Source of the DNA: a virus
Direction: 5' to 3' (one strand)
UHGV virus genome: UHGV-0059448
DNA: 29,315 nucleotides
Shown in pieces: positions 2,351 to 27,734 of the stretch. The number at the start of each line of letters is the position of its first letter. Positions within the stretch are counted from its first letter, which is position 1. The translations under genes and the position numbers were made by a program. A model generated the notes under the pieces. The model worked only from the letters and a program-made list of their open reading frames with translations. It made no database searches and was not told where the DNA came from.

Positions 2351-5300
2351 AACCTGTGAATGAACCAGATCCGTGTGATACTATGATAGTAGGCGAAGAA
2401 ATTGACGCACCACTGTTATTTTGAGCGGACACTTTAATACGCACTGTTACGTTTGGACCTGTTACAACCGCAGAATGCATGATAAGTCTCTCCATGTCTT
2501 GCACGGATGAACCACTCTCATTGCCGTTAATATTGATTAGTCCTGCACCATTACCTTTAACGTTTGCTATAACACAGACGTGTCTTGCGTGCCCAGAACT
2601 GGATGAATCCGTATAAGTTATTACCTTTTCTAAAAGACCGTCACTAGACCGACTAACGTTAGTTCCGGTGTGCATATTTGCAATGTCCCCGATAAAACTT
2701 TGGGCTTCCACAGTCCCTTTGAATTTACCGCTTGTTGCTTGGATCTCACCAGTAAAGCTACCGCCACTAGCATATACTACACCTCTGACGGTCACATTGT
2801 TGAATTCAGCATCTCCAGCTTTATTCAACTTCCAACCAGCAGAACCAGCTGCATAGTTGTTGGACTGGATATAGTTGCCGATTTTGGCGTTCTCAATGGT
2901 GCCGTCCTGGATGAAGCTGGCCCGGATGAATGTCTGCCCGTTCTGGATCACGAACGGCAAAGCTACGCTATTTCCGGCTGCCGTGGTGACGGCGAAGCGG
3001 TCAGCCAGAAAAATTACCTGTGATTGCATGCCGCCAGGTGTATTTTGTACCCCTATGCCCATACCTGCAGCGTAATACTGGCCGTTAGCGGCAACGCCAA
3101 CTTTGATGTTGTACATCGCGTTTAGGTTGCCGTTTACATCTGCCACCGCCTGCGCCGTCTGGTTGATGGCTGCAGTCTGCCCGTTCACTGTCACCGTCAG
3201 AGAGTTAATCTTCGTGGCGGATGCCTGGGTGAAATCAGCCAGTGTCTCCGTCAGGTCGGTCGCGTTCGAAACATTCCCACCCGCAGACGCATCAAGCGTA
3301 ACCAATGCCCGGGCAACCGCCTGGCTGGTATCGGCAATGGTGGTGTCTATCCGGTCAATTTTTGCGACATTGCCGTTATTGGTGGCAGTCTGGGAACGGC
3401 GGGAAGTCACCTGCGCCAGGCTGTTCTGGATCACGGCAATTGATGAGTTTTTGACACCGCCGGTCATGCCGTCCATCGACACAGAAATCTCGTCGATCTT
3501 CACTTCGGCCTGAGCCAGCCCGTCAGCGTTCTCCAGGATGTCTTTCGCCTGCTGCTCGAGTTCGTCGGCATGGTTTTTAATTTCGTCAGCCATGCCAGCA
3601 ATTTTTTCATTGCTGTCCACCGCGTTCTCGATCAGGTCTTTGAACGTATCGGAGTCTTTAATTTCCTCCAGAATCACATCTGTGATATCGGAAACATCGA
3701 TGCTGGCCTGTCCTCGCACCCATTCTGTGTACCCTGATTCGTTGCCGCTGCGGTCCACCAGCTGCGCGCGGTACCAGAAAATCTGCCCAGCCTTAAGGCC
3801 CATCTGCTGATATTTGCGCTGCGGGTAAGGCACATCGGCCAGCAGCATGGCATCGTCTTCAGTACCGGTCAGGCTGTACTGAATTTCCGTCTTCAGCGTG
3901 TCGTCGGTATTCGCCTGGAATCCCCAGTTCAGCTCGATACCGAACACCACGTTTTCAGAGGCGATAAAGCCAACCGGCTTCGGTGGATTGCCCACTTTAC
4001 CCGTCAGCGTTTTCTCTTCTGAATAGCCCCATCCGGATGAAATTTCTGCGGCATTGATTGCGCGCACCCGCACCAGGTAGCGCCCGGCATAAATCCCCGG
4101 GACGTCGAATGACGTGGTGGAGGTGCGCGGCACGTTAACCCAGTTCCCGTCATTGCGACGCCACTGTGCCTCATACGCGATAGCATTTTTCGCCTGGTCC
4201 CAGCTGACGCGCATGGTCTCAACGCTGATATTCTGCTGAACGACAGAAAACGAACTGATCGCGATATTAGCTGGCGGGGACTGATTACCGGGCGGAATTA
4301 CACTTATTGGCCGCTGGTCGATAATGGCACCGGTATCGATACGCGCATATTTATCCGGATCGTGCAAAGCGCCAGCAATCGAATACGTTCCGTCATTATT
4401 ATCCGTAACGCTGATAACGCGATATTGCTGCGCGTAAAGCTCTTCAGACTCGACAATCCACACCGATTCCACTGCAGGTGTTTCGCTGTATGCCGTTGTC
4501 ACAGTGACGGCCCGCCCGTTTACGCTCTGTATCGTCCTGCTCTGCGATGCGCCGGACGGAAGGTTAACCATCAGACGGCTTCCGGGAGCGGCTGGCGAAT
4601 CACGATCAAGCGTGATAACGCGACCGTTAACCGCGCTGATGCGCCCTCCCATCACTTTTCCGGAAAGCAGCTCATCGGCAACCGCGATGATATAACCAGG
4701 CTGTGGGATCTTACCGTCAAGACCAACATCGAACGACACGATGCGATCCTTGTTATTGGTCAGGATACCCCAACGTCCTTTGCGGTTTGCCTCTGACTGC
4801 CGGGTACAACCAATGGCTGTCATTTCGAGCTGATTTGTGCCAAAGCGAGCAACGAGATCCTGCTCAAATACAGGCTCCATCGCATCCGCGTAGGCATTAC
4901 CCGGATCGGACCAGGAAACCAGTGCCGTGGTATAGCGGGTTTTGGTGGTGCTGCCCGAATAGGTAAAGCGCCCATTAACCACGTTTGCACGCGTGTAGCT
5001 GTAATCCACATCGCGGGGCATATCCGCCAGCGCAACGATTTGATCGCCACCCCAGTACGTCATGCCCCGGAATATCGCCGCAAAATCACGTAACACGGTA
5101 TAGGCGTCATTCCTCTCCTGCACGTACACGTTACAGGTATAGCGAGGCTCAGTGCCGCTACCGCCTTTACCATCAGGAACCGGCTGATCGCAATATTGCG
5201 CGACCTGATAAAGCGTCCATTTATCAATATTGGCCGCCGTCAGGCGATTGCCCAGCCCAAAGCGGTCGCTCACCACCAGATCGTAAAAAATCCAGGCTGG

Positions 5301-24039: not shown

Positions 24040-24576
24040 TCATTTTCGTAACTTCTCAATCTCTCGTATACCCGCCAGGTTATTGTTGCCCTTCTCAATA
24101 ACAGCCAGCAAAGGTTCAATCCAGAGGACGGCCTGGCAATACGTCATTGAGCTGGCGGCAGCGGTACTATCATCGGTTGCGTTAGTGTTCCCGGTATCGG
24201 GGTGCATTGCGCTGGCACGTAAACGGTACGCGTATTTGAGCAGCCCACCAGCGACATCAGCAGGAACAGGCAGATCACAGGTCTTTTCACGTCGGAGAAT
24301 CTCCCGGTATTCGATGACAGTTTTCTCAGTACCGGCATCGATCAGCGAGTTAAGGCGGTTGGCGTTCTCTGCTATCTGGTTAAACCGATTGAAGTTGAAA
24401 GCCTGTGTAGTTATCACCGTCGCCTGCAGCGCGTTATCATTACGTAATACCCGATTCTCACTCTGTTCTGTTTCAAGAGCTGAGCGGCTACGAACCAGTA
24501 ATACGCTAAGCACTGCAATAATGATTACGACAGCCACCAGCAGAACCGCAACAATCGTAATTTTTCTGGGTTTCAT
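24040..24576 (-). CDS. Rz: spanin, inner membrane subunit (Rz-like)
   Basis: 178-aa ORF with N-terminal transmembrane helix (ITIVAVLLVAVVIIIAVLSVLLV) and a charged helical periplasmic part; start overlaps the endolysin stop; contains an embedded lipoprotein ORF in another frame. Confidence 0.8.
   Translation of the reverse strand: MKPRKITIVAVLLVAVVIIIAVLSVLLVRSRSALETEQSENRVLRNDNALQATVITTQAFNFNRFNQIAENANRLNSLIDAGTEKTVIEYREILRREKTCDLPVPADVAGGLLKYAYRLRASAMHPDTGNTNATDDSTAAASSMTYCQAVLWIEPLLAVIEKGNNNLAGIREIEKLRK
24144..24290 (-). CDS. Rz1: spanin, outer membrane lipoprotein subunit (Rz1-like), embedded in Rz
   Basis: Frame embedded within Rz; probable GTG start at 24290 (GGGAG about 10 nt upstream) giving MKRPVICLFLLMSLVGC with lipobox LVGC; Pro-rich mature part (...PIPGTLTQPMIVPLPPAQ). 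The ORF track lists an ATG at 24338 as an alternative start. Confidence 0.7.
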   Translation of the reverse strand: MKRPVICLFLLMSLVGCSNTRTVYVPAQCTPIPGTLTQPMIVPLPPAQ

Positions 24577-25148
24577 CAGAATACCCCCGGAACTGATACC
24601 GGAATGCCAGGGTTAAGCGGCCCGAGTCCATCCCCCAGAACCTGAGGTTTCTCTGCCCACAGGCAAACTTCACGCTCAATCTCACGCCTCGTGATTAAAC
24701 CCTTCCACTGTTTGTCACCAGCATAGATCCAGCGCCGCAGTTGTTCGCATGCGCCTTTCGAATCACCCTGGTTGATTTTTCGTAACAGTGTGGAGGTTTT
24801 GAAGTTTCCCGCGCCTACGTTATACGCAAATGAGTACAGCGCCCCTCTCATCGTTTCGGGGATCGGAGCATTGATATATGGGTTAATCTGTCGGGCGACA
24901 ATATTCAGGTCTTTATCCAGCAGCGCCTGGCACTCTGCTTTGGTGTAGGTCTTGCCGAGGATAATATCTTTACCAGTATGGCCCCAGCATACAGTCCACA
25001 CTCCAACAACATCCCGATAAGGCTGATAGCGTACACCTTCAAGGCCATCATTACCCGTTGGGCCAGTAATCAACGCCGCAGCGATAGCAATAGCGCCAGC
25101 GGGTATCGCTGCAATAACGCTATTCTTCAGCTTTGGTGGCATAGCCAT
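24576..25148 (-). CDS. R: SAR endolysin (T4-type lysozyme, phage 21 R-like)
   Basis: 190-aa ORF; N-terminal signal-anchor-release segment ([18 protein letters not shown]) followed by GNDGLEGV...[14 protein letters not shown] catalytic region resembling phage 21 R as recalled. Confidence 0.9.
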
Positions 25149-25398
25149 TGCGCCGATCCTCCCGTTCTTTCCAGCGGAAATACCAGTTCACTGCACAGGT
25201 AATAACAGTGCATGCGATACCGACAATAATTGCCCAGTCGCTCAGGCTTAACCCTGCAATTCTGTCGGCCAACATCCAGGACACCTCTTTTGCTGTTTTA
25301 GCTGTTTCGGCATATGCCTTCGCTGATACACCGCAGCCGGTCAGCGTGGTTCCTGTTCCATATGAAAGTCTGCTGTAAATGGTGCTCATTCTGGTCAT
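25120..25398 (-). CDS. S: holin (phage 21 S-like pinholin) with dual-start motif
   Basis: 92-aa ORF beginning MTRM (ATGs at 25398 and 25389) with GGAGGTGAGG SD; two predicted TMDs and C-terminal KEREDRR resembling S21; 3' end overlaps the endolysin start. Confidence 0.85.
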
Positions 25399-25605
25399 AG
25401 CCTCACCTCCGATTTTTCGGATGGCGCTGTGTGTGTGTTTGAAAAGGGTCAGGCTTCACGGGCTGGATTTATCAACAAAGCACGTAGCGGATGATTCCCG
25501 TGAGCCTGAAATTGATGAATATGTCTGAAATAACTAGACCATTAGTAAAACAACTCGATAAATGTGGTTAAATGAGACTACGTTCTCACAACTTAATTAG
25601 TACCA

Positions 25606-25776
25606 ATGATTATCAAGCCCTGCCCCTACTGCGGAAAGTTAATTAACCCAGAATCACTTGTGTGTAGCCACTGCCGGATAGTGAATCCTTTTGTGAAGGC
25701 CAGCAGAAGAGAAAAAGCGAAGAATGTATTAGTAATCGCTCTCGTTGCTGCTTTTTTAATTTGGATGATTCTCTGA
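25606..25776 (+). CDS. small zinc-ribbon membrane protein (56 aa), putative
   Basis: Plus-strand ORF MIIKPCPYCGKLINPESLVCSHCRIVNPF... with two CxxC pairs and a C-terminal hydrophobic helix (VLVIALVAAFLIWMIL); below the ORF-track size cutoff; weak SD; AT-rich insert between tR'-like terminator and holin. Confidence 0.4.
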   Translation: MIIKPCPYCGKLINPESLVCSHCRIVNPFVKASRREKAKNVLVIALVAAFLIWMIL

Positions 25777-25807
25777 GTTGCCAGTTTTCAATGAAGATAA
25801 TGCGGGC

Positions 25808-25835
25808 AAAAAAAAGCCTGCTCGGACGAACAGGC
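25808..25835 (-). terminator. rho-independent terminator, candidate tR' of the late leader transcript
   Basis: Minus-strand RNA GCCUGUUC-GUCC-GAGCAGGC followed by UUUUUUUU; about 140 nt downstream of the candidate late promoter. Confidence 0.6.
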
Positions 25836-25978
25836 ATGAAAAATAACAATACCGTCAAGGAGGTGGCGCCGGGTGCCTCCCGGTGGAACAGCCCCAGCCG
25901 ACTAGTTCCGCGCAAACAAACCTGGACAAAAAAGTTTGACTGGACGCCCCGCCGCATAGGGGGATTCACCACACGAAT

Positions 25979-26008
25979 AGATTAACAACATGTTAATTTT
26001 CTGGTCAA
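25979..26008 (-). promoter_or_regulatory. candidate late promoter pR'
   Basis: Minus-strand TTGACC (26008..26003), 18-bp spacer, TAATCT (25984..25979); context ATATCTTATTGAC resembles the lambda pR' region as I recall it. Weak -10, so assignment is tentative. Confidence 0.3.
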
Positions 26009-26144
26009 TAAGATATAAGCAAATGATGACATGCAGTTTTCTTATTGCTGAGTAACTTCAATCTGGTTCAGGGCTCTGCGCGGAAGGGCTTTGACGTGTC
26101 GTGCAGCACGTCTCTACCCAAGAGCCCTGACCGGATCGCAGGCA

Positions 26145-26172
26145 TAAAAAAGCCCCGGCGGATTGCCGAGGC
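26145..26172 (-). terminator. rho-independent terminator about 90 nt after the stop of the putative Q gene
   Basis: Minus-strand RNA GCCUCGGC-AAUCC-GCCGGGGC followed by UUUUUUAU. Confidence 0.55.
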
Positions 26173-26261
26173 TAATTTTACAAACTGGTATATGACTATC
26201 ATCTTCATGCCGCCACTTAAAGTTAAGGCAGCATATCAAAGTAGACTCAAATATGACGTAT

Positions 26262-26951
26262 TTAATTGACTTTTGCAAGACCCTGCTGCGAAAAAGTCGC
26301 TTTTTGTTGTGATCGTGTTCTCACAGCACAGAGAAGAGAGTCGCTATCAAGCCGCTTAAAAATGGCGCACATAGCCCGCCAGTAATCAGCGTAGTTATGG
26401 CACCAGTTATCAGGCTTAACGCCACACAGGGCTGCAAGGTCCTGGTGCTGATATACATACTTACCCGCCAGCTCTGCTTTCACGTCCTGTGCCGCCAGCC
26501 ATATCAGTTTCTTCAGCCGCTCCATCGTCTTGCCGGCCACTTTCTTAGCGCCGAGTTGATCACGGAATTCTTCCCATGCCCACTGTGTTATCGCTACTTG
26601 ATACTCAAAGCGGATATTGTCGCTGTAGTTCCACAGCAACCAGGATTTCTGGTGGTCTTCCAGCGACAGGAGGGCGCGGCGCCAGCTGGCTGTCGAGTAT
26701 TCAACGGGCAGAACGAGAGCGATTGAGGAACCCTTAGCGCGGGACTGGCTGCCGCTCATCGGCGGTCCATCCGGGTTAACCATTTTTTGCTTCACCTCGC
26801 TATACACCTTCTTCCGGCCACGGCTGCGCGCCGTAGCGGTAAATTGCGCGTTCTCTGCAAAAGCTACCAGTTGCCCTTTCGTCGCACCACTCAGATCGGC
26901 GGTGGCCACTATCAGCTGCTGGCGAACAAATTCCAAGTATTGAGCTGTCAT
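26262..26951 (-). CDS. putative late-gene antiterminator (Q-like by position; family not verified)
   Basis: 229-aa ORF, ATG at 26951 overlapping the stop of the preceding small ORF (ATGA); last gene before the late promoter/terminator region and lysis genes; sequence does not resemble lambda Q as recalled. Confidence 0.5.
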   Translation of the reverse strand: MTAQYLEFVRQQLIVATADLSGATKGQLVAFAENAQFTATARSRGRKKVYSEVKQKMVNPDGPPMSGSQSRAKGSSIALVLPVEYSTASWRRALLSLEDHQKSWLLWNYSDNIRFEYQVAITQWAWEEFRDQLGAKKVAGKTMERLKKLIWLAAQDVKAELAGKYVYQHQDLAALCGVKPDNWCHNYADYWRAMCAIFKRLDSDSLLCAVRTRSQQKATFSQQGLAKVN

Positions 26952-27088
26952 GCTGCTTCTCCCAGGCGCTTATAGATACGGACGAAATTGCGTAATATTT
27001 TGTAGTCGACCAGCACGGTGCCGCGGCTACGCAGGAGGCGAAGCTTTTGCCAGCGGTCGCGGATGCGTTCGATAACGTCACGGCTCAT
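26948..27088 (-). CDS. small protein (46 aa), translationally coupled between rusA and the Q-like gene (ylcG-like position)
   Basis: ATG at 27088 overlaps the rusA stop (ATGA); stop TGA at 26950..26948 overlaps the start of the next gene; product [46 protein letters not shown]; below the ORF-track cutoff. Confidence 0.5.
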
Positions 27089-27447
27089 GCGGACTCCATT
27101 TCAGTAATGGTTAGCTCAAGCCGCCCACCTTTGACGACAGGCATTCTCTTCACGCTGTAGTAGTCAACCTGCTGGTCATCGAGCCAGAAACCCGATTTCG
27201 TCAGCGCGTCAAAAGCGGCCTTTTGCAGATTATCCAGGTCACGGCGACGGCGATCCGGCATGTGGCACTCAATGCGGATTTTCACAGGCATAGCCAGACC
27301 GATATCCAGCATTGCGTTTTTAATGATTCGGGCGACGTTATCGCGGTATGCCTGCCCTTCTGCGCTGATGTGCGTGCGCCCGCGATTATGGCGGTAGTAG
27401 CGGTTATTGCTCGGCGGCCAGGGCAATGTGATGTTGTAAGTATTCAC
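27085..27447 (-). CDS. rusA: Holliday junction resolvase RusA
   Basis: GTG start at 27447 overlapping the ybcO-like stop (GTGA) gives a 120-aa product [37 protein letters not shown]... matching E. coli RusA as recalled; the ORF-track start at 27510 would add 21 non-conserved residues. Confidence 0.9.
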
Positions 27448-27734
27448 GCCTTGATTACCCCCTCTTTCAGCCAGATAACCTGCGTTCTCGCCATACCTTC
27501 CAGCGCGCATTCTTTAGCATACTCAGCATCGACAAAATGTGTACGGCGGTCGATCTCGTCGTGACAGGCAGAGCATGCAATGGTGGCAATAAGGTCTGGC
27601 GGTTTAATACCGGTGCCGCACAATCCAGCCAGCCGGATATGTGCCAGTACAGACGTTTCAGGATTGCCATTACATACGCCAGGGATTCTTACCTGGCATT
27701 CCCGACCACGCGCTGCTTTTCTCAAATCAGCCAT
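27444..27734 (-). CDS. ybcO: YbcO-like Cys-rich protein (DUF1364 family, putative nuclease)
   Basis: 96-aa [38 protein letters not shown]... closely matching DLP12 YbcO as recalled; ATG at 27734 overlaps the ninE 3' end. Confidence 0.8.

Follow-up and report, generated by a model that had tools for sequence, protein, structure and literature searches.

Predicted phage 82-type late-gene switch and two additional mosaic cassettes between the Q and holin genes of a lambdoid phage genome

The window analysed here is a stretch of 29,315 nucleotides of the virus genome UHGV-0059448, in which the genes relevant to late transcription all lie on the minus strand. NinB, YbcO and RusA are encoded upstream of a Q antiterminator gene, and between Q and the holin there is a gap of 863 nt that holds the features described below, with a SAR endolysin gene and an Rz-like ORF after the holin (Table 1). 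An initial annotation made from the sequence had read this region as regulating late transcription in a lambdoid phage, which is correct. The two intrinsic terminators that it had placed in the gap are both present on the minus strand and conserved, and the holin sits 3' of both.

Table 1 Features of the late regulatory region, with positions given in the coordinates of the window
Feature	Coordinates	Strand	Basis or remarks
Q antiterminator gene	26262..26951	minus (26951->26262)	229 aa, PF06323, phrog_304
Predicted late promoter pR' (82 type)	26250..26278	minus	sequence and geometry in related loci
Predicted sigma70-dependent pause element	26219..26238	minus	published 82 pR' description and conservation
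Predicted terminated leader RNA, ~98 nt	26145..26243	minus	predicted start and tR'
tR' intrinsic terminator ("first terminator")	26145..26173	minus	stem and T6, conserved position
Interrupted hairpin module, 79 nt	26060..26138	minus	fold and recurrence
Probable decayed tRNA 5' fragment (GAAGTTACTCAGCA)	26046..26059	minus	at junction with STnc100 cassette
STnc100 sRNA promoter	25979..26008	minus	conserved upstream of STnc100 copies
STnc100 sRNA, ~165 nt, with own terminator	25808..25972	minus	Rfam RF02076
Holin, first late gene	25120..25398	minus (25398->25120)	PF16080 and PF04971, phrog_20
SAR-type lysozyme (SAR endolysin)	25148->24576	minus	PF00959; after holin
Rz-like ORF	24576->24040	minus	after SAR-type lysozyme

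The Q protein matches PF06323 with an E-value of 1.1e-79 and 267.7 bits over positions 1-217 of the 220-position profile. PF06323 is the Q82 family, one of three unrelated families of Q proteins (PMC9388147), and by its sequence the antiterminator of this phage belongs to this family and not to that of lambda, in agreement with the suggestion in the initial annotation that a different antiterminator family might be at work. It shares 58% identity with the phage 434 Q, annotated in its record as "Q82-like", and 57% with that of Gifsy-1, annotated as similar to REGQ_BP82. A sequence search against solved structures returned no match for Q, and a search of phage records for a homologue of an antisense mini-ORF found none.

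The late promoter, its terminator and the leader RNA

The predicted late promoter overlaps the Q stop codon, with a -35 element TTGCAA (26278-26273) in the 3' end of Q, a 17-bp spacer and a -10 element CATATT (26255-26250), which gives a predicted start at 26243/26242. Both hexamers are moderate, with matches at 4/6 positions each, and the promoter falls below what is called in a consensus scan. Beginning 14 nt after the -10, and predicted to span +6 to +25, there is an extended -10-like sequence TGaTATGCT (26238-26230) followed by GCC (26229-26227) and the AT-rich stretch TTAACTTT, whose last letter is a T at 26219 (~+24/+25). [quoted passage not shown] When the start is taken as 26243, TATGCT occupies +9 to +14, GCC occupies +15-17 and position +25 is a T, so that the arrangement in the window matches the published geometry of 82 pR'.

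With a view to the conservation of this arrangement we compared 80 viral contigs encoding a Q protein of 87-100% identity, which yielded 78 loci and 62 distinct post-Q sequences. The arrangement of -35, 17-bp spacer and -10 is invariant across the 62 distinct sequences, a conservation that is confounded with coding constraint as the -35 lies within the Q coding sequence and the spacer overlaps it too. Past the coding sequence the motif TGnTAnnnT is found exactly 14 nt beyond the -10 in 61 of the 62, among three sequence classes, and in a segment map of the loci the first ~60 nt past the Q stop stay linked to Q, also in loci in which the terminator and all that follows have been replaced. Phage 434 has its -35, 17-bp spacer and -10 as in the window and Gifsy-1 has an equivalent promoter at its Q stop, consisting of TTGACA, an 18-bp spacer and TATATT. 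On this comparative evidence the late promoter is in all likelihood an 82-type pR' straddling the Q stop codon, at which RNA polymerase would start, pause and be loaded with Q. The initial annotation had instead taken as the late promoter a site further downstream (TTGACC-N18-TAATCT), a proposal that is contradicted by the 82-type promoter and pause element at the Q stop, which are kept in the related loci. One other minus-strand candidate, ATGATA-16-TAAAAT (26202-26175), was called by the consensus scan and was rejected as pR' as its start would fall within the terminator stem.

The first terminator downstream of this promoter has a stem running from 26173 to 26151, with 9 bp of which 7 are G-C and a loop of 5, followed by TTTTTT to 26146 (dG -17.3 kcal/mol). 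Each of the 62 distinct Q82-type loci has an intrinsic terminator at 50-163 nt beyond the predicted start, built on one of several unrelated stem sequences. The pairing of an 82-type pR' with a terminator in every related locus identifies the first terminator as the expected tR'; it had been thought foreign to the lambda layout. From its sequence and position it is the canonical tR' of an 82-type pR', and Q would be expected to allow polymerase to read through it. The number of terminators is in itself uninformative, with three terminator-like sites in 24500-27500 against 2.8 +/- 1.6 in shuffled sequence, that is not above chance; it is the conservation and position of the terminators that exceed chance. 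Neither of the two is followed by a U-tract when read on the plus strand. These results are mainly of use in correcting an annotation: Q82-family phages have a late promoter that overlaps the 3' end of Q, and tR' is the first terminator after it. A late start directly after Q with termination at 26145..26172 had been named in the initial annotation as the outcome that would overturn its own reading, and it is this outcome that the comparative evidence backs.

The RNA released at tR' is predicted to run from 26243 to 26146 (~98 nt) and to fold into a 5' hairpin (26234-26207) followed by an AU-rich single strand ahead of the terminator, with a fold energy of -32.4 kcal/mol and z = -3.3. We predict this leader to be the 6S-like RNA of this phage and a positional analogue of IsrJ, IsrK and StxS. 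When a 251-nt query was compared with Rfam, including isrJ and isrK (RF01393/RF01394), the leader of the window gave no match even at E <= 10. In one class of sister loci, however, the leader at the same position matches Rfam isrJ, and the Gifsy-1 leader matches Rfam isrK. IsrK has been reported to arise from a phage promoter that is regulated by antitermination (PMC7547250). Judged by sequence the leader of the window is therefore a positional analogue of isrJ and isrK and not a member of either family. As isrJ and isrK, listed in Rfam as "island" sRNAs, coincide in position with 82-type pR' leaders, the unannotated 98-nt leader is a candidate sRNA of the same origin. Assignment of either the leader or the hairpin downstream of tR' to a known Rfam family was considered and rejected, as only sub-threshold terminator-like chance matches were obtained.

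The STnc100 gene

The site taken as the late promoter in the initial annotation comprises TTGACC (26008-26003), an 18-bp spacer and TAATCT (25984-25979), with a predicted start at ~25972. It is below the threshold of the consensus scan, its -10 matching at 3/6 positions. It is present where it had been reported; the distance given, ~140 nt upstream of the second terminator, does not hold as there are ~165 nt to the end of that terminator. The second terminator has a stem running from 25835 to 25816, with 8 bp of which 5 are G-C and a loop of 4, and a T8 tract to 25808 (dG -13.5 kcal/mol). The segment from 26004 to 25805 matches the Rfam family RF02076 (STnc100) across the full model (positions 1-206 of 206) with 82.6 bits against a gathering score of 47 and an E-value of 2.2e-17. 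What had been read as a 6S-like leader formed by the promoter-like site and the second terminator is by this match an STnc100 gene, and the alternative suggestion of an sRNA in this region was in that respect correct.

We compared 44 distinct copies of STnc100 in the fetched loci. These fall behind six unrelated classes of upstream sequence, all of which keep a TTGAC/A-type -35, a spacer of 17-18 bp and a TAnnnT -10, the latter ending in each class exactly 8 nt ahead of the invariant motif GGTGAATCCCC. The retention of the promoter in six unrelated contexts indicates that STnc100 has its own sigma70 promoter. There is thus good comparative evidence, at the level of sequence, that the promoter-like site and the second terminator make up a self-contained STnc100 gene that would act as an independent transcription unit. 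In line with this, ChIP-exo has located RpoD binding at Salmonella copies of STnc100 (PMC10794520). In Stx2 phages copies of STnc100 are found 75 nt downstream of stx2, where an Hfq-bound sRNA has been described (PMC12370729, PMC12711010), and in the EHEC copy STnc100 overlaps the Hfq-bound sRNA EcOnc27, which is reported to act in trans (PMC12711010).

A rival layout in which TTGACC-N18-TAATCT is the late promoter, the ~165-nt RNA ending at 25808 is a 6S-like Q-responsive leader and 26145-26173 serves only to end an early or Q transcript has in its favour that the promoter is real and conserved, that a strong terminator follows it upstream of the holin and that the lambda 6S leader is of similar length at 194 nt, with a termination site at +193 (PMC4914094). 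The unit is nonetheless the Rfam STnc100 cassette, which also occurs downstream of a Q21-family gene (in locus L206), in other loci ~900 nt past a tRNA gene and downstream of stx2B, and which shows no co-variation with the type of Q as a Q-utilisation site would need to. It is moreover absent from most Q82-type loci, yet at their Q stop these still carry a promoter, pause motif and terminator. STnc100 is therefore not tied to Q82-type loci, and this phage does not use it as its Q-utilisation site. The initial transcribed region of STnc100 (GTGGTGAATCCCCC) also has no good -10-like repeat, with the A at position 2 missing, and we regard the rival layout as very improbable. Promoter and terminator pairs downstream of an 82-type switch, such as that of STnc100, are better viewed as separate sRNA cassettes that Q-modified polymerase would also have to read through. 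The components listed in the initial annotation were thus right, and it was the roles of the two promoter and terminator pairs that were swapped.

The hairpin module

Between tR' and the STnc100 cassette lies a 79-nt module with perfect 10-nt arms at 26068-26077 and 26121-26130 and an inner stem formed by GACGTG (26093-26098) and CACGTC (26107-26112). Its minimum free energy is about -36 to -38 kcal/mol (z = -3.7) and none of 200 shuffled sequences folds as well. The outer and inner stems are located where they had been placed in the initial annotation; the branching of the Y-shaped structure drawn there is not recovered, as the module folds as one interrupted stem of 27 predicted pairs, made up of basal stems of 5 and 3 pairs, an outer stem of 9, a middle stem of 4 and an inner stem of 6. 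A search of Rfam with the hairpin gave no match. A tRNA or tRNA-like identity was also rejected, with ARAGORN reporting 0 genes in the window and RF00005 giving no match at E <= 10.

The module of ~80 nt recurs at 79-100% identity in more than 120 IMG/VR contigs, in 42 phage records (38 of Klebsiella plus HK620 and HK633) and in 60 of 5426 complete E. coli genomes, where it is always unannotated. A 26-nt hairpin pattern had 0 matches in species-representative genomes, and a 17-nt pattern gave essentially chance matches in high-GC genomes with one possible true match in Kluyvera. In 103 of 117 non-redundant loci the T-tract of a terminator lies directly upstream of the hairpin. Downstream of it there is a tRNA gene (Thr, Gly, Asn or Met) at a distance of 0-2 nt in 60 of the 117 and STnc100 at ~85 nt in 31. 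The boundaries of the module are sharp and constant while its flanks are exchanged, with at least four types of terminator upstream and either tRNA or STnc100 downstream. It is found downstream of all three families of Q, namely Q82, Q-lambda (HK620, vB_Kpn_RAH1) and Q21, and is therefore not a Q-specific cis element. It is also dispensable, since in many Q82-type loci it is missing and tR' is followed at once by a tRNA gene. A covariance model found no divergent homologues of the hairpin in 43 related loci without the module.

At the junction between hairpin and STnc100 cassette there is a short sequence (GAAGTTACTCAGCA) that is probably the decayed 5' fragment of a tRNA gene fused to the sequence upstream of STnc100. 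Two other loci (L040, L041) carry CTGGTTTAGCTCAGCA, a 16-nt intact tRNA-Thr 5' end, at the same place and fused to the same downstream sequence, and in L016 the tRNA-Thr adjoining the hairpin begins with exactly CTGGTTTAGCTCAGCA.

Over 67 distinct variants of the hairpin 97% of cells are paired, and compensatory changes are seen in 3 of the 27 pairs (C-G to U-A, A-U to G-C and G-C to A-U), all of them in the middle and inner stems and accompanied by many G-U intermediates. The covariation score of 0.099 compares with 0.095 in shuffles and is matched by 7 of 500 shuffles, that is it is marginal, and an earlier sample anchored on the 5' arm gave no covariation. An apparent restriction of G-U pairs to the sense strand was rejected as an artefact of this 5'-arm-anchored sample, the 3'-anchored sample being symmetric. 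Fold energies make the antisense strand the more stable in 41 of 54 variants. The fold does not resolve the strand, and it is the constant orientation of the module and its end at -1 of sense tRNA genes that lead us to treat it as a sense-strand RNA.

Our tentative view of the hairpin is that it serves to process or stabilise the late transcript made by read-through. With 27 predicted pairs it has the length of an RNase III processing site, for which at least ~20 bp of interrupted double-stranded RNA is taken. It may also be, although we hold this to be somewhat doubtful, that it is a functional RNA motif, a post-tR' hairpin cassette that can be swapped with the unrelated hairpin of lambda type at this site and is exchanged as a unit by phages of any Q family. 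Cleavage within it, for example by RNase III, would then separate the leader on which Q is loaded from the rest of the transcript and set where the tRNA array or late mRNA begins.

Equally doubtful in our estimate is that the hairpin has no function of its own and is either a mosaic junction that has spread recently or what is left of a decayed element, such as a tRNA-associated or other mobile sequence, conserved only through the youth of its copies. The high identity among copies, the lack of divergent homologues in the covariance model search, the weak covariation, the absence from many related phages and of the 26-nt pattern from species-representative genomes and the tRNA fragments adjoining the module would all fit such an origin. 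The boundaries, however, stay sharp and constant while both flanks change and the module is found with all three Q families, its pairing is maintained with compensatory changes and G-U intermediates, the HK620 copy still folds at 79% identity, and lambda carries at the corresponding position a long hairpin of unrelated sequence; neither ARAGORN nor the Rfam tRNA model matches the module.

We think it unlikely that the hairpin is instead a DNA-level palindromic site for protein binding or recombination that marks a module boundary. As an imperfect palindrome it folds about equally on both strands, the covariance model matches the opposite strand too, if weakly, and the hairpin lies exactly at mosaic junctions. 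At ~79 bp, on the other hand, it is far longer than typical operator sites, the asymmetric internal loops are conserved, and its constant orientation to late transcription and its end at -1 of sense-strand tRNA genes are as expected of a transcribed leader. A sharply bounded hairpin that is absent from Rfam recurs between tR' and phage tRNA genes in more than 100 prophages of Klebsiella, Enterobacter and E. coli that represent all three Q families, and the cassette is a testable candidate for a processing signal of late transcripts.

Proposed layout and comparison with known systems

Taken as a whole the region is very probably organised as a phage 82-type late-gene switch within the 863-nt gap with two extra mosaic cassettes, the hairpin and STnc100, downstream of it. 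Sequence comparison establishes the Q family, the geometry of promoter and pause, the terminators and their conservation, the membership and promoter of STnc100 and the conservation and context of the hairpin, and we infer promoter activity, a pause, Q loading, read-through and such functions as the leader and hairpin may have. RNA polymerase would start at a constitutive sigma70 promoter overlapping the Q stop (~26243) and pause ~25 nt further on at the -10-like repeat. Without Q, transcription would terminate at tR' (26173-26146) and release the ~98-nt leader RNA. A Q82-family protein loaded on the paused polymerase would allow it to read through tR', the hairpin and the whole of STnc100 including its terminator and into the holin, endolysin and spanin genes. 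STnc100 would be transcribed independently of Q from its own sigma70 promoter (~25972) to its terminator (25835-25808) as an RNA of ~165 nt, in keeping with what is described for family members from prophages of Salmonella and EHEC. The 79-nt hairpin would follow tR' in the read-through transcript, where it may provide a site of RNase III type or act as a leader that fixes where the tRNA or late RNA downstream of it begins.

The closest parallels to the switch are phage 82, phage 434 and the antQ-IsrK region of Gifsy-1, which likewise combine a Q of PF06323, a promoter overlapping the end of Q and a short leader ending in an intrinsic terminator. With phage 82 pR' the window also has in common the extended -10-like repeat 14 nt after the -10, the GCC and the AT-rich stretch. 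It differs from 434 and Gifsy-1 in that their Q proteins are only 57-58% identical to that of the window, in that its leader is a different sequence variant with no isrJ or isrK match, and in that this leader of ~98 nt is longer than that of 434 (~55-60 nt). Compared with lambda 6S RNA, StxS and IsrK/IsrJ the predicted leader is alike in coming from a constitutive late promoter, in being ended at tR' and in placing an AU-rich single strand ahead of a strong terminator, whereas it resembles these RNAs neither in sequence nor by covariance model.

The STnc100 family overlaps EcOnc27/sRNA103 of EHEC and is structurally related to PasD. The copy in the window shares with the family the 5' motif GGTGAATCCCC, the stem-loop CCGGGAGGCACCCGG and its own promoter and terminator, and like other members it sits in the late leader of a lambdoid prophage. 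Its centre (25940-25885) is a rarer variant found in common only with L009-L011, and the helix arms of this centre carry compensatory changes with respect to the common Klebsiella form. A resemblance of the lambda late leader to a degenerate STnc100 was suggested by eye and set aside, as it is unsupported by cmscan.

Lambda itself has a long interrupted hairpin at 44775-44875 with ~28 pairs, -34.7 kcal/mol and z = -3.5. It lies like that of the window directly past the T-tract of tR', is of similar size and stability and has in common with it the junction motif ...TTTTT(n)ATCTGCA... (TTTTTTATATCTGCA), but its stem sequence is unrelated and no tRNA genes follow it. According to the title of a paper from 1988 that PMC7547250 cites, the late transcript made under Q in lambda has processing sites for RNase III, and if these lie in the lambda hairpin it may offer a precedent for processing at the hairpin of the window. 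A hairpin in this position had been called unexpected from the lambda layout; the presence of a long hairpin at the same position in lambda indicates otherwise. The Q82-type switch and STnc100 are thus of kinds already known and the hairpin is an undescribed cassette of narrow distribution. Once the family of Q is recognised there is no departure from the lambdoid layout, as lambda too has tR' followed by a long hairpin.

The STnc100 variant and its junction

The central helices of the window's copy of STnc100, the Rfam sRNA encoded with its own promoter and terminator, are unlike those of the common Klebsiella variant. Both arms are changed, reading GGAACnAG...CUGUUCC in the window versus GGGCCAUGU...ACAUGCUC in the common variant, and among the compared loci the window shares this rarer central form with L009-L011 only. 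In the window, and in L040 and L041 just past the hairpin (the ~80-nt interrupted-stem module directly after the terminator tR'), the STnc100 upstream sequence is joined to tRNA genes of which only a truncated 5' end remains, and these fused ends suggest recombination of the STnc100 cassette into a tRNA array. A 19-nt inverted repeat with 74% complementarity takes in both the -35 region of STnc100 and the tRNA remnant; it is probably due to chance.

Coordinates of features in the window and in compared loci (L-numbers; mostly viral contigs with related post-Q regions)
Feature	Locus	Position	Strand
Lysis cassette (holin + lysozyme)	window	24576-25398	-
56-aa ORF	window	25606-25776	+
STnc100 central helices	window	25885-25940	-
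19-nt inverted repeat	window	25995-26013 / 26040-26058	
tRNA remnant	window	26046-26059	-
isrJ/isrK at pR' leader	L051, L053, L054, L059, L060, L061, L066, L083	3206-3282	
isrJ/isrK	L005	3211-3287 and 4047-4121	
HK620 sites	L207 (NC_002730)	1453-1495 and 2084-2110	
Lambda-type hairpin	L059, L078-L081	~3290-3330	
Lambda-type hairpin	L207	1820-1940	
Lambda-type hairpin	L302	376-476	

Antisense ORF and lysis cassette

A 56-aa ORF runs antisense to the late operon with the STnc100 terminator on one side and the holin on the other. Its product has a CxxC...CxxC zinc-ribbon motif and is hydrophobic at the C-terminus, and its Pfam matches (DUF2116 and zinc-ribbon families) all fell below cut-off. No homologue was found in phage records by tblastn, and its DNA is shared with L009-L011 only; the ORF could represent a small moron gene. 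The neighbouring holin matches the P21/HP1 holin families (PF04971, PF16080) and is paired with a lysozyme carrying a hydrophobic SAR-like segment at its N-terminus, which suggests a pinholin/SAR-endolysin system.

Late leaders and alternative hairpins after tR'

The Rfam sRNAs isrJ and isrK correspond to the short leader running from the 82-type late promoter pR' to the terminator, immediately 3' of Q82-family genes; Gifsy-1 has a second isrJ copy farther downstream, without an adjoining Q. In HK620 a clear intrinsic terminator (AAGCCCTGAG...CTCGGGGCTTTTTC) lies inside the stretch annotated as 'qut', approximately 50-70 nt past pR'. Directly 3' of it comes a copy of the hairpin with 79% identity, and the 'late terminator tQ' of the record lies 600 nt beyond. 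The terminator within 'qut' looks like the real tR'. The sequence of the hairpin that lambda carries after tR' (CTGCACAACAGGTAAGAGCATTG...) recurs at this place in several Q82-type loci, and HK620 has it too, with an insertion; there are therefore at least two alternative hairpin cassettes at the post-tR' site.
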